A DNA stretch of 62,822 nt from an uncultured Planctomycetia bacterium (GTDB lineage: Bacteria > Omnitrophota > Gorgyraeia > Duberdicusellales > 4484-171): the NCBI GenBank assembly GCA_964635565.1, contig CAZWON010000007.1, positions 1 through 62,822 of the forward strand, read 5' to 3'. Position 1 is the stretch's first letter. Each line of letters begins with the position of its first letter. A model generated the notes under the pieces. That model saw only the letters and a list, made by a program, of their open reading frames with translations. It made no database searches and was not told the origin of the DNA. Position numbers and translations under genes: made by a program. Below, piece after piece: positions 1 through 15,861 of the stretch.

Positions 1-95
1 GATATAAGAGAATGTAGAATTAGAATTAAATAATTTTAAAAAAATTATTTAATTTAGTTTCAAAAAAATTTTTTTAAAAAAAAATCGAAAAAATG

Positions 96-124
96 TTGAC
101 AAACTTTTTTTTATTTGTTAAATT
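96..124 (+). promoter_or_regulatory. sigma70-type promoter of the Lys-rich micro-gene
   Basis: TTGACA (96-101), 17 nt, TAAATT (119-124) with extended -10 TG at 116-117. Confidence 0.75.
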
Positions 125-172
125 TAGATTAGAGTATTCGCACAAGTGTGCGGGAAAAAAAGGAGGTGGTAA

Positions 173-235
173 ATGGCAGTAAAGAAAAAGAAGAAAGCAA
201 CAAAGAAGAAAGCGGCAAAGAAGAAAAAGAAATAG
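173..235 (+). CDS. 20-aa Lys/Ala-rich basic micro-protein MAVKKKKKATKKKAAKKKKK (histone H1/protamine-like composition)
   Basis: Hand translation; SD AGGAGG at 161-166, 6 nt before ATG; promoter upstream and terminator downstream; below the ORF-track length cutoff. Confidence 0.8.
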   Translation: MAVKKKKKATKKKAAKKKKK

Positions 236-259
236 TTTTGCATCGGCATGAAGATAAAA

Positions 260-287
260 AAGAGCCCGCTATAAATAGCGGGCTCTT
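260..287. terminator. Intrinsic, probably bidirectional, terminator
   Basis: Perfect 12-bp stem AAGAGCCCGCTA/TAGCGGGCTCTT with TAAA loop; A-tract on the left, T-rich tract on the right. Confidence 0.85.
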
Positions 288-494
288 AATTTTTTATTTT
301 ATTTATTCTATTACTAAATCACAATAAGATTATATTTACAAATTAACTTAACATTTATAATAAATCATTTTTCTAACAGTTTTTTTTATTTCTTTTTATT
401 AAGAGCATGCCTTATTACTCTTTTATATTTTAAATCTGGAAAGTCTGTAATTGACTCAAATCGTTATAGTTACAAAAGCGCTCTTTTTATAAAG

Positions 495-523
495 AAGATA
501 GTTGCATTTTATAATCTTGTCAA
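495..523 (-). promoter_or_regulatory. Putative leftward sigma70 promoter
   Basis: Minus strand TTGACA (523-518), 17 nt, TATCTT (500-495); no annotated gene downstream. Confidence 0.4.
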
Positions 524-634
524 TTTTTAATATCTTTTAAGTGGTTTATTTTTGTTTTTTAAATCTATTATTTTGTTATTTTCAAACAGAAGATATTGTT
601 TATTTTTAAAATAGAAAGGAATAAGATTAAATAA

Positions 635-662
635 TTGACAGCCTGCTTATGTGTGGTAAACT
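635..662 (+). promoter_or_regulatory. Putative promoter of the radical SAM-feoAB region
   Basis: TTGACA (635-640), 16 nt, TAAACT (657-662) with TG at 654-655. Confidence 0.55.
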
Positions 663-779
663 TCCTTACATATAAAAATTATTATCAATAAGAAGAATAA
701 TACTAAATTCTTTTAAAGAAATATAATTGTAAACCACAGTTTTGAATTTATATCGATAATAAATAATACGATTAAAAAA

Positions 780-1715
780 ATGGGTTACGTATATGGACCA
801 GTATATTCTAAACGTTTGGGTTTTTCTTTAGGAATAGATATTGTTCCTCGAAAAACTTGTAGTTTTGAATGTGTGTATTGTCAGTTAGGGAGAACTTCTT
901 ACAAACGCATTCGCCGTTTTAAGTGGGTTAAGATAAATAAGTTTAAAAAAGAGTTAAAAAAAGTATTGAAAAATAATTTAAGAATTGATTACATTACTAT
1001 TTCTGGTTCAGGAGAACCAACCCTTCATAAAAATTTAGATGTTATTATAAAGGAAATAAAAAAAATATCTTTATATAAAATTCCTGTTTGTGTAATAACT
1101 AACTCTTCTCTTCTGTATAGATATTGCGTGAGAAAAGAGCTAAGTAATGCTGATGTTGTTATGCCATCTTTAGATGCTCCTTCTCCAGAGATATTTAATA
1201 AAATAAACTGTCCCCATAAAAGTATTTCTTTTAAATATATAGTTAGAGGATTGATAGAGTTTAGAAGAGAATTTAAAGGAAAGATTTTTTTAGAAATAAT
1301 GCTTCTTAAGGGATATAATGATAAAAAAGAATATGCATATTTATTTAGGGATATTATAGAAAAAATCGATCCGGATAAAGTATATCTTATCTTTCCTTAC
1401 CGTCCTACCCCCTTATCAAACATTAATCTTATTCCTTCTTATAGAAGAATAATATATTTTAAGAAAATATTAGGGAGCAGGTGCGAAATAGTAGGGCAAG
1501 GAAGAAAGAATATTTCTGTTAAAAAGAGGAAAATAAATAAGGAGGATATTTATATGTCTTTATTGAGACGTCCTCAAACAAAAGAAGAACTTAAAATTGC
1601 ATTAGGTTGCAGTGATAGAATATTACAAGATATTATTAGAGAGCTTCTAAGAGAAAAGAAAATTTATTGTGTATATGAAGGGAAAAAGATTTATTATACA
1701 AAGATATCTTATTAA
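780..1715 (+). CDS. Radical SAM protein (COG0731/wyosine-synthase-like Fe-S oxidoreductase) with C-terminal winged-helix-like tail
   Basis: CSFECVYC CxxxCxxC motif; YGPVxSxRLGxSLG N-terminus; SGSGEPTL. Confidence 0.8.
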   Translation: MGYVYGPVYSKRLGFSLGIDIVPRKTCSFECVYCQLGRTSYKRIRRFKWVKINKFKKELKKVLKNNLRIDYITISGSGEPTLHKNLDVIIKEIKKISLYKIPVCVITNSSLLYRYCVRKELSNADVVMPSLDAPSPEIFNKINCPHKSISFKYIVRGLIEFRREFKGKIFLEIMLLKGYNDKKEYAYLFRDIIEKIDPDKVYLIFPYRPTPLSNINLIPSYRRIIYFKKILGSRCEIVGQGRKNISVKKRKINKEDIYMSLLRRPQTKEELKIALGCSDRILQDIIRELLREKKIYCVYEGKKIYYTKISY

Positions 1716-12305: not shown

Positions 12306-12659
12306 ATGGTTGTAGGAGTGGGAATAGATATAGTTAAAATAGAAAAGATGAAACTTGCTATTAAACGATGGAGCAATACTTTTATCAAGAGAATATTTAA
12401 TCCTGAAGAGTTAAAAAATATTTCTAAAGGAAAAATTTACTATCAGCGTCTTGCAGCGCGTTTTGCAGCAAAAGAAGCAGTTATAAAGGCTTTAGCAAAA
12501 ACTTACCCTTTATCTTTTAAAGATATTTTGATTCTTAACAGGGATAATGGTGCCCCCTTTTGTAAAATAAAAAAAGAAGATAATCTTAATATTTTCATTT
12601 CTTTAACCCACATTGAGGATTATGCTGTTGCCTGCGCAGTTGCAGAAAAGAAAGAGTGA
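12306..12659 (+). CDS. acpS: Holo-ACP synthase
   Basis: GVGIDIV, ARFAAKEA, SLTH. Confidence 0.95.
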   Translation: MVVGVGIDIVKIEKMKLAIKRWSNTFIKRIFNPEELKNISKGKIYYQRLAARFAAKEAVIKALAKTYPLSFKDILILNRDNGAPFCKIKKEDNLNIFISLTHIEDYAVACAVAEKKE

Positions 12660-13509
12660 TACTCACAAAGGAGATTACGGACACGTATTAGTAATTGGAG
12701 GAAGCTGTGGCCTTACAGGGGCTGTATGTTTATGTGCCCAGGCAGCTTTAAGAAGTGGTTGTGGTCTGGTTACTGTAGGAGTTCCTTCTTCTTTAAACAA
12801 TATTTTTGAAGTTAAACTTACAGAAGTAATGAGTTTACCCCTTAAGGAGACTTCTCAGCGCACCCTTTCTTTAAGCGCCTTTAAAATAATTAAGCAGTTT
12901 TCTTTGAAAGTAGATGTAATAATTGCTGGTTGTGGAGCATCTTGTAATGTTTCTACTAAGAAATTAATAGTAAAGATATTAAGAGAGATAAATAAACCTT
13001 TAGTTGTGGATGCTGATGGAATAAATGCCTTTGTGGGAGATTTAGAGACGTTAAGAAGGAGAGTGTTTCGAGATGTTATTTTTACTCCACATATGGGAGA
13101 ATTTTCCCGCCTTATTAATAAAAGTATTGATTATATTAGGAAAAAGAGAAAAAGGCTTGCCAAAGAATTTGCTCTTCGGTATAATTTAATCCTTGTATTA
13201 AAGGGTTGCCGTACTATTATCACTGATGGCAAAAGATTTATTGAAAATACAACAGGAAATCCTGGTATGGCTACTGCAGGTAGTGGTGATGTATTGAGTG
13301 GAATAATCAGTGGTTTGATGGCTCAGGGATTAAGCGGTTTTGAATCAGCTAAGTTAGGTGTTTATCTGCATGGTTTAGCAGGAGATTTAGCAGTAAGAGA
13401 TATTACCCAAGTTTCTTTAGTAGCATCTGATATTATAAAGTATTTACCATTAGCTGTAAAAAAATCTAAGCGCCCAGGTAGCTCAATCGGCAGAGCAGGG
13501 GTTTTGTAA
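12613..13509 (+). CDS. nnrD: ADP-dependent NAD(P)H-hydrate dehydratase (stand-alone NnrD; start 12613 or 12622)
   Basis: HKGDYG, VVDADG, TPHMGEF, GNPGMATAGSGDVL; no epimerase domain; 3' end overlaps tRNA-Thr. Confidence 0.92.
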   Translation: MRIMLLPAQLQKRKSDTHKGDYGHVLVIGGSCGLTGAVCLCAQAALRSGCGLVTVGVPSSLNNIFEVKLTEVMSLPLKETSQRTLSLSAFKIIKQFSLKVDVIIAGCGASCNVSTKKLIVKILREINKPLVVDADGINAFVGDLETLRRRVFRDVIFTPHMGEFSRLINKSIDYIRKKRKRLAKEFALRYNLILVLKGCRTIITDGKRFIENTTGNPGMATAGSGDVLSGIISGLMAQGLSGFESAKLGVYLHGLAGDLAVRDITQVSLVASDIIKYLPLAVKKSKRPGSSIGRAGVL

Positions 13510-13544
13510 ACCTCAGGTTGGAGGTTCGATTCCTCTCCTGGGCT
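13472..13544 (+). tRNA. tRNA-Thr(TGT)
   Basis: Acceptor GCCCAGG/CCTGGGC; anticodon arm GGGGT-TT-TGT-AA-ACCTC; TTCGATT loop; no encoded CCA. Confidence 0.95.
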
Positions 13545-15832: not shown

Positions 15833-15861
15833 TTGACAAACTATTAATTATAGGATAAATT
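15833..15861 (+). promoter_or_regulatory. sigma70 promoter of aroK operon (leaderless), -35 overlapped by an inverted repeat
   Basis: TTGACA (15833-38), 17 nt, TAAATT (15856-61), 6 nt to ATG; TCAAGCTC/GAGCTTGA repeat at 15815-15836. Confidence 0.65.

Follow-up and report, generated by a model that had tools for sequence, protein, structure and literature searches.

The window analysed here is a stretch of 62,822 nucleotides (nt) of contig CAZWON010000007.1, from an uncultured bacterium labelled Planctomycetia. Judged from its sequence, the interval 96–295 on the forward strand holds an entire monocistronic gene, whose translated product is an oligolysine micro-protein of 20 residues. The product, MAVKKKKKATKKKAAKKKKK, is encoded at 173–235 on the forward strand, with ATG at 173, 20 codons and TAG at 233–235. 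Thirteen of the 20 residues are Lys and acidic residues are absent. Re-reading of 173–235 agrees with the initial annotation of this DNA on both points. The product would have a mass of about 2.3 kDa, which loss of the Met in front of Ala would lower to about 2.17 kDa, and a net charge near +13.

A chance open reading frame (ORF) of AT-rich DNA is ruled out by simulation. The DNA of the window is 33% GC, and none of 300 second-order Markov simulations of it gave an ATG-started ORF of at least 15 amino acids (aa) with at least 60% Lys. The ORF at 173–235 is the sole Lys-rich micro-ORF in the 62.8 kb.

Expression cassette and its orthologues

The signals around the ORF are all on the forward strand. 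A sigma-70-type promoter is present at 96–124, with the -35 hexamer TTGACA at 96–101, a 17-nt spacer, TG at 116–117 and the -10 hexamer TAAATT at 119–124. This is the TTGACA-17-TGnTAAATT arrangement of the initial annotation. Transcription is predicted to start at about 131. The 5′-proximal hairpin of the messenger RNA, UCGCAC-AAGU-GUGCGG, is at 138–153 (6 pairs; -8.0 kcal/mol, z = -3.2). Its core stem CGCAC/GTGCG at 139–152 was described before, and a G-U pair lengthens the hairpin to 138–153. An A-rich linker joins the hairpin to the Shine-Dalgarno (SD) sequence AAGGAGGTG, 9 nt at 160–168, which is the full complement to the 16S 3′ end. The previously noticed perfect AGGAGG is within it at 161–166, and the gap between GGAGG and ATG is 6 nt. 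The intrinsic terminator is at 260–295. Its 12-bp stem, also recognized earlier, is at 260–287 with 7 G-C pairs and the loop TAAA, and is followed by the T-run AATTTTTT. The terminator is bidirectional, reading on the minus strand too, because there is an A-run upstream of the stem. In the predicted transcript fold, the SD and the start codon are essentially single-stranded, with a few weak pairs in the minimum-energy fold and none in the centroid.

Promoter-like hexamer pairs occur in the window at chance density (11 seen versus 10.9 expected), and therefore the promoter match alone proves nothing. Relatives were compared as well; all genomes compared are metagenome bins of uncultured organisms. 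The neighbouring radical S-adenosylmethionine (SAM) protein, encoded at 780–1715, has two 62%-identical relatives in bins labelled 'Planctomycetia'. Both of their loci carry the syntenic micro-ORF MAVKKKKATKKKATKKKATKKKKK. The three-way DNA alignment is near-identical from about 85 nt 5′ of the -35 hexamer to the ATG. Between the window and the related locus L002, the promoter and the 5′ untranslated region (UTR) are about 95% identical, while the adjacent radical-SAM gene is 71% identical at the nucleotide level and 60% at the protein level. The ORFs differ by one 12-nt in-frame indel, corresponding to one repeat unit. The changes in the aligned ORFs are synonymous (AAA/AAG and GTA/GTT), plus one Ala-to-Thr. 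The terminator stems are the same save the loop-closing pair, which is changed on both sides (A-T versus T-A); the loop differs. The similarity collapses right after the terminator.

The initial annotation had proposed a pattern search across related genomes, and a scan of this kind was made. The pattern was GGAGG, 4–9 nt, ATGGCNGTN and four AAR codons, applied to one genome per species. About 20 complete stand-alone micro-ORFs of 20–51 aa were found, each with an SD and nearly all with a visible terminator hairpin. The hosts are Omnitrophota, Melainabacteria, Gemmatimonadota, Myxococcales, one bacterium of the candidate phyla radiation (CPR) and others. In the Gemmatimonadota analogue (70% GC), 24 of 24 Lys codons are AAG. 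As far as these sequences can tell, homology of the analogues in other phyla with the Omnitrophota family is not separable from convergence, because the sequences are of low complexity.

Because this pattern imposed the N-terminus MAVKKKK, a synteny-anchored test was chosen. At 80 rsfS loci, any Lys/Arg-rich ORF within 800 nt downstream of rsfS was accepted. The gene assigned as rsfS in L002 matches PF02410 (E = 1.5e-28). Among the 29 closest loci (Omnitrophota-type), 24 have the micro-ORF 90–235 nt after rsfS, 3 are without it, and 2 are incomplete. The cassette is thus seen in 24 of the 27 evaluable closest species, versus 1 of the 51 more distant rsfS loci, which are from Clostridia, Verrucomicrobia and distant Omnitrophota. 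The window and 25 species constitute an orthologue set of 26, which is a lower bound for the family in Omnitrophota-type bacteria. RsfS is only 41–60% identical between the lineages bearing the micro-ORF; the micro-gene is therefore ancient within the clade. In the window itself, the upstream gene is probably rsfS, since rsfS precedes the micro-ORF in 24 related species. The window edge is 172 nt 5′ of the ORF, and so this assignment depends on a 10-codon tail with its stop on the forward strand (1–33, TAA at 31–33), reading DIRECRIRIK* in frame 1.

The orthologues are 13–47 aa long, and their length differences are in frame only. Their pooled composition is K 62%, A 21%, T 7%, V 6% and R 2%, with neither D, E nor aromatic residues. 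The C-terminus is almost always KKKKK followed directly by the stop. The N-termini include MAVKKKK, MAVKKAKKK, MAKKKAKKK, MAKRRKAKK, MPAKKK, MAAKRKK and MAVRKK. MAVKKKK was rejected as the defining N-terminus, as the rsfS-anchored set also has MAK.., MPAK.., MAAK.. and MAVR.. The syntenic relatives show synonymous AAA/AAG changes, wobble changes in GCN, ACN and GTN codons and in-frame repeat indels, the sort of variation whose absence would have counted against the gene in the initial annotation.

The expression signals are conserved along with the ORF. The -35 hexamer is exactly TTGACA in 25 of 26 orthologues, the spacer is 16–18 nt in all 26, the -10 hexamer is TAAATT in 25, and the extended TG is present in 21. 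The invariance of TAAATT, rather than TATAAT, is unusual for a non-consensus hexamer. An SD of the same type, with GGAGG 6–8 nt before ATG, and a GC-rich terminator hairpin with a T-rich tail 17–102 nt past the stop are both seen in 26 of 26. The window holds all components that define the family, which are the promoter, the SD, a Lys-rich ORF that opens with M-A-(V) and closes with a K-run, and the terminator, with rsfS represented by its probable 10-codon tail.

The -35 hexamer is abutted on its 5′ side by an A/T tract (AAAAAAA..CGAAAAAATG) at 62–95 on the forward strand, which we infer to be an upstream promoter (UP) element. The tract is about 95% identical to its counterpart in L002, and the motif AAAAAAA-N3-4-GAAAAA-N3-TTGACA recurs in most orthologues. 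About 20 of the 26 orthologues have a 5′-proximal hairpin within a few nucleotides of the predicted start. Its stem occurs in at least 7 different sequences, and the hairpin is absent where the 5′ UTR is short. The 5′ UTR sequence is not conserved between the deeper lineages. The hairpin is thus a conserved structural feature, and the simplest guess for its role is mRNA (messenger RNA) stabilisation.

The only other TTGACA-N15-18-TAAAWT site in the window is at 15833–15861, before aroK-dprA-topA, and a further promoter-like site, TTGACA-16-TGnTAAACT, is at 635–662. TTGACA-N-TAAATT was considered as a general strong-promoter signature in this genome and rejected, as its sole other match precedes aroK.

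Some loci have additional elements. An extra small hairpin is found 5–35 nt past the stop in L180–L193, L197 and L203, often with AAGGT/ACCTT arms. The position of this 3′ UTR hairpin is kept while its sequence varies, and the window and L002 are without a clear equivalent. At L061:2004–2069, and also in L158 and L160, a tandem second Lys-rich micro-ORF of 21 aa, MKGKSMTKKKTSRKKAAKKKK, is present. Its GGAGG overlaps the stop of the first micro-ORF, and a shared hairpin is about 100 nt past the first stop. In the sister lineage L107/L179, the ATG of the second micro-ORF is lost and its 3′ half persists. On these sequences, the tandem copy looks like a duplication in decay.

Codon choice and translation

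A purine tract is without stops in any frame, and therefore the open frame alone is no evidence for translation. In one reading, a purine-rich small RNA is the functional product and the frame merely an incidental one. The compact unit of about 165 nt from promoter to terminator, with conserved 5′ and 3′ hairpins, would suit such an RNA. The orthologues speak otherwise. SD and ATG are invariant with a fixed geometry in 26 of 26, and in all of them the last Lys run is immediately followed by the in-frame stop. The ORFs show strict three-base periodicity: position 1 is A/G, position 2 is A/C, and G/T/C variation is concentrated at position 3. Such confinement of variation to wobble positions, the lack of conservation of the 5′ UTR sequence between deeper lineages, the maintenance of Lys coding at 70% GC and the absence of any matching Rfam family all argue against a small RNA, which is the least probable of the readings considered here. 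Analogues with SD and terminator persist in genomes of 60–70% GC, where all their Lys codons are AAG (L134, L088 and L094).

The codons of the Lys residues are informative. Long A-runs cause transcriptional slippage and ribosome sliding, and thus an arrangement with short runs is a prediction of selection for faithful production of the peptide. The ORF in the window uses 8 AAG and 5 AAA codons, and its longest A-run is 5. The AAG fraction of 8/13 compares with a genome background of 0.30 (P = 0.02), and the run of 5 compares with 8.2 expected when its own Lys codons are permuted (P = 0.018). Over the family, 205 AAG codons are observed versus 158 expected from neighbouring genes (z = 4.9). The longest A-runs sum to 169 versus 239.6 after permutation of each ORF's own Lys codons, and none of 2000 permutations was as low. 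These pooled statistics overstate independence, as the orthologues are phylogenetically related, and the P-values are optimistic.

The family-wide codon choice favours short A-runs, and the suggestion of selection as coding sequence is therefore borne out. The initial annotation had also stated that no A-run exceeds 5. This is right for the window with its 8 of 13 AAG codons, whereas single orthologues in relatives reach 6–9, so that a limit of 5 is not family-wide. Taken together, these sequence patterns indicate that the micro-ORF family has a translated product protected against poly(A) slippage.

Translation could also serve regulation. In a regulatory leader, translation of the Lys run would report on Lys-tRNA or translation capacity and thereby govern transcription past the terminator into the downstream genes. 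The his, thr and phe leaders likewise have one codon type repeated ahead of a terminator, and Rfam gives weak, noise-level matches for Thr, Trp and Phe leaders, located on the terminator. All Rfam matches score far below gathering and owe their scores to the terminator hairpin. In Rfam 15, nothing in window positions 1–800 reaches the gathering threshold; at E ≤ 1 the best matches score 17–29 bits versus cut-offs of 40–115, nearly all on the terminator. The fold of 131–296 contains only the 5′ hairpin and the terminator, with no antiterminator. Past its ATG, the ORF has only 5 C and 2 T among its purines. It is unpaired save for a few weak pairs in the minimum-energy fold, and none of it is complementary to a terminator arm. 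The downstream genes are unrelated to lysine and differ, being radical SAM and FeoAB in the window and ribE or GGDEF genes in relatives. A strong promoter and a strong terminator of its own accompany the ORF in 26 of 26. The attenuator model was rejected for the missing alternative fold and the unrelated downstream genes, and a regulatory leader is very improbable.

Possible functions of the peptide

The chances are about even that the peptide is an abundant, non-specific counter-ion or condensing polycation of nucleic acids. High expression is what we infer from the conserved signals: the UP-like tract, the consensus -35 hexamer, the extended -10 hexamer and the unstructured perfect SD would give an abundant peptide. 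The peptide is without a hydrophobic core and therefore could not fold, and would have to act through charge. It would be intrinsically disordered, with about 13 positive charges, and would bind polyanions electrostatically, mainly chromosomal DNA and possibly RNA or ribosomes. By neutralising phosphate charge, it might compact or stabilise nucleic acid. It would amount to a Lys/Ala-rich tail, as known from histone H1, chlamydial Hc1/Hc2, AlgP and BpH1, in free-standing form. If only bulk charge matters, the repeat number could drift freely by in-frame slippage, and the 3.6-fold variation in orthologue length argues for bulk charge, not for a fixed binding pocket. The composition, which is like that of H1 tails and Hc2 pentamers, points the same way.

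The same Lys-rich module, MAVKKKK plus (A/V/T/P)KKK repeats, heads longer proteins elsewhere, and its fusion partners are mostly DNA proteins (SWIB and TopoVI-A). SWIB fusions (PF02201, E = 1.6e-29) are seen in Bdellovibrionota-like bins (L139, L098 and L148), and a TopoVI-A-like fusion is seen in L089. In Omnitrophota (L113, L076 and L159), the module is fused to a small beta-barrel resembling domain 2 of EF-Tu. In SAR11/HIMB59 (L132 and about 20 loci), whole proteins of 90–140 aa, among them SAR11 proteins of about 125 aa, are composed of module repeats.

Several points weigh against the polycation explanation. There is no statistically valid link to H1-like families, with 0 matches for the window peptide; low complexity defeats HMMER. 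The composition is equally compatible with RNA, ribosome or polyphosphate binding. The position next to rsfS, the gene of a ribosome silencing factor, might suggest a role at the ribosome. A polycation accounts neither for the conserved 5′ hairpin nor for the very high conservation of the promoter region.

The ribosomal hint leads to an unlikely rival: a lineage-specific ribosome-associated protein, either a tiny ribosomal protein or a hibernation or assembly helper after the manner of bS22, bL37, bTHX or eL41, that would bind ribosomal RNA (rRNA) at a defined site. The product is tiny and extremely basic, its strong expression signals are like those of ribosomal proteins, and the ORF is directly downstream of rsfS in 24 species. 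Small ribosomal proteins were repeatedly missed before cryo-electron microscopy (cryo-EM) (PMC10081302, PMC6133939), and Hc2-like repeats bind RNA too (PMC2848022). Against it, the orthologues range over 13–47 aa and their non-Lys residues are only A/T/V. Known small ribosomal proteins have fixed lengths and specific contacts. No family match was found in NCBIfam, Pfam or the PDB chains. The neighbourhood is a conserved block, trpA-M16 peptidase-rsfS-micro-ORF-ribE, in which the gene after the micro-ORF is ribE at 18 of 25 loci and a GGDEF gene at 5. The adjacency to rsfS is no more conserved than that of the unrelated neighbours in this block, and a specific functional link between rsfS and the micro-ORF was rejected, as the whole surrounding block is syntenic. 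The Melainabacteria analogues have other neighbours; they are between glycosyltransferase-like and aminopeptidase-like genes, whose identities were judged from sequence by eye. The initial annotation had offered two functions, a nucleoid-condensing (protamine-like) peptide or a small ribosome-associated one. On these sequence features, the balance tilts toward a non-specific polycation over a site-specific ribosomal protein.

The partner might be a polyanion other than those above. Polyphosphate granules, for example, could be the main partner, or the peptide could take the place of polyamines as a gene-encoded equivalent. The H1-like protein AlgP localises to polyphosphate granules, and its Lys/Ala repeats have the same chemistry as the peptide (PMC9239181). 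The sequence has no feature that singles out DNA. The loci examined show no linkage to ppk or polyamine genes, and this would be a variant of the polycation explanation rather than a separate mechanism. Its probability is low.

Oligolysines are membrane-active, and the peptide could be speculated to be an exported polycationic antimicrobial or cell-penetrating peptide of a host-dependent or predatory bacterium. Similar micro-ORFs are found in Melainabacteria, Bdellovibrionota-like bins and CPR bacteria, and Omnitrophota show host-dependent traits (PMC10066038). The micro-protein has no signal peptide, its gene has no adjacent transporter, immunity or maturation genes, and it is in a housekeeping syntenic block. 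Export is thus very unlikely.

A wider proposal may be ventured, tentatively and with the balance somewhat against it. Free oligolysines of 13–47 aa could be a dedicated, very highly expressed class of polycations in Omnitrophota and several other small-celled lineages. They could be an encoded counter-ion that compacts the chromosome in place of, or in addition to, nucleoid-associated proteins and polyamines, or else a component of the ribosome so far overlooked. Most Omnitrophota are ultra-small cells (PMC10066038).

Database searches return nothing significant for the family. Scans of the 20-aa peptide against NCBIfam and Pfam gave 0 matches, and a 17-member profile gave 0 matches at E ≤ 10 against all PDB chains. 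A phmmer-type search with a 44-aa orthologue in 5.8 billion clusters gave 29 word candidates, none of them significant. By exact look-up, none of 10 family members, including those of 42–44 aa, is present in a collection of 15 billion proteins. The remark in the initial annotation that pipelines miss such a gene is thus well founded. The family is missing from the collection because its members are below the length limits of gene callers and too low in complexity for HMMER/BLAST. The literature was searched for MAVKKKK, lysine-rich small proteins and protamine-like bacterial proteins, and no such peptide is described in the papers searched. A pattern scan of metagenomes gave 6 loci, mostly duplicates of known lineages. 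A look-up with the radical-SAM protein gave only a 2-kb Logan contig (SRR6823441), which is without the micro-ORF region.

A scan of viral sequences found one comparable 21-aa ORF, MAVKKKKKSKKKNKKKGKKKR, on a viral contig (L163:3243–3308), and no evidence of phage origin. Other viral contigs (L165, L167, L169 and L173) encode Lys/Gly/Met-rich repeat proteins of 73–87 aa with KKRAGGGSMV units. The viral Lys-rich ORFs may be phage DNA-packaging polycations.

The surroundings of the gene and the bins themselves offer further observations. Between the terminator and the radical-SAM gene (780–1715) is an AT-rich stretch of 484 nt (296–779) without a credible ORF. Its counterpart in L002 holds a Fur-like gene (PF01475, weak). 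The Fur-like gene seems to be lost in the window, although FeoA and FeoB follow. Farther downstream, an NAD(P)H-hydrate dehydratase-like ORF (12613–13509) overlaps the start of tRNA-Thr (13472–13544) by 38 nt. One of these two features may have its true stop or start elsewhere. The window start, the L001 start and the L176 end are all in A/T tracts between rsfS and the micro-ORF, L001 and L176 being from the same related bin. Assemblies seem to break repeatedly at these homopolymer tracts, and this would further hide the gene context. Several 'Planctomycetia'-labelled binchicken bins sit among Omnitrophota relatives. The block M16 peptidase-rsfS-micro-ORF-ribE is also found in L184 (JAIWAR010000036.1), from a bin labelled as a Methanosarcinales archaeon; this label is probably a binning error.

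The family exemplifies a blind spot of annotation. A gene conserved in a clade, with one of the best-conserved promoters of its neighbourhood, is missing from a collection of 15 billion proteins, and only synteny combined with the logic of expression signals finds such genes. Similar micro-proteins can be mined from other genomes by looking for the promoter, the SD, a K-rich ORF and the terminator together. The codon pattern is a natural experiment in which poly-lysine is encoded while poly(A) slippage is avoided. If the gene is what it appears to be, the 13-codon orthologue would rank with the shortest known stand-alone protein genes that are conserved, in a family invisible to gene callers and homology tools. 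If the proposed function is true, a minimal free H1-tail would be added to the bacterial chromatin proteins, with a bearing on how DNA and ribosomes are packed in ultra-small cells.

Comparison with known lysine-rich and small basic proteins

Chlamydiae and Omnitrophota are both placed in the Planctomycetes-Verrucomicrobia-Chlamydiae (PVC) group. The chlamydial Hc2 (HctB, PF07382) and Bordetella BpH1 likewise consist of short Lys-rich repeats with Ala, Val, Thr and Pro. Hc2 has pentamers of K/R with A/V/T/P, whose number changes without loss of frame, and its binding to DNA and RNA is electrostatic (PMC2848022). In-frame variation of repeat number between strains or species is thus shared with the micro-protein family, as seen in the 12-nt indel versus L002 and the range of 13–47 aa. 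Hc2 is 165–237 aa long, with 36-aa higher-order repeats and conserved flanks, whereas the micro-protein is the repeat alone at 13–47 aa. Lys density is 62–65% in the micro-protein versus 2 basic residues per Hc2 pentamer. With PF07382, the window peptide gives 0 matches and the longer analogues score 11.7–19.3 bits versus the 40-bit cut-off. This sub-threshold HC2 match is the only Pfam signal for the longer stand-alone analogues. Neither the flanking regions nor the 36-aa elements of Hc2 are found, as the 20-aa product is without a non-repeat part beyond M-A-V. The N-terminal dimerisation domain of Hc1 (HctA, PF07432) is absent too, with no Pfam match and no room in 20 aa.

Tails of the H1 type are disordered, bind DNA through charge and condense it. 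They hang on a folded or dimerising domain, whereas no such domain accompanies the micro-protein, whose gene has a promoter and a terminator to itself. The C-terminal tail of H1, the C-terminus of Hc1, AlgP and the tail of mycobacterial HupB have K/A/T/V/P compositions like that of the micro-protein (PMC9239181, PMC2848022).

Among small ribosomal proteins, bS22, bL37, bTHX and eL41 have a comparable size (24–33 aa) and the same extreme basicity. They are of fixed length and Arg-rich, with specific residues, whereas the micro-protein family varies 3.6-fold in length. Neither near-constant length nor contact residues are found in the family: conservation among the orthologues is limited to M, A and the terminal K-run, and the tests against NCBIfam, Pfam and the PDB chains (the last with the 17-member profile) gave 0 matches to ribosomal families. 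Annotation overlooked bS22 and bL37 until ribosome structures were solved by cryo-EM (PMC10081302, PMC6133939).

ScvA of Coxiella burnetii is a precedent for a very small basic chromatin peptide in a bacterium. ScvA and Hq1 are small basic DNA-binding peptides enriched in the condensed small-cell form of Coxiella (PMC4766238). They have no sequence relationship to the micro-protein, and their regulation is developmental. ScvA is about 30 aa long and rich in Arg and Gln rather than being poly-Lys. Bacterial nucleoid proteins rich in Lys and Ala are thus already known, while the free-standing and independently transcribed form of 13–47 aa, as predicted from these genomes, has no description in the sources searched.

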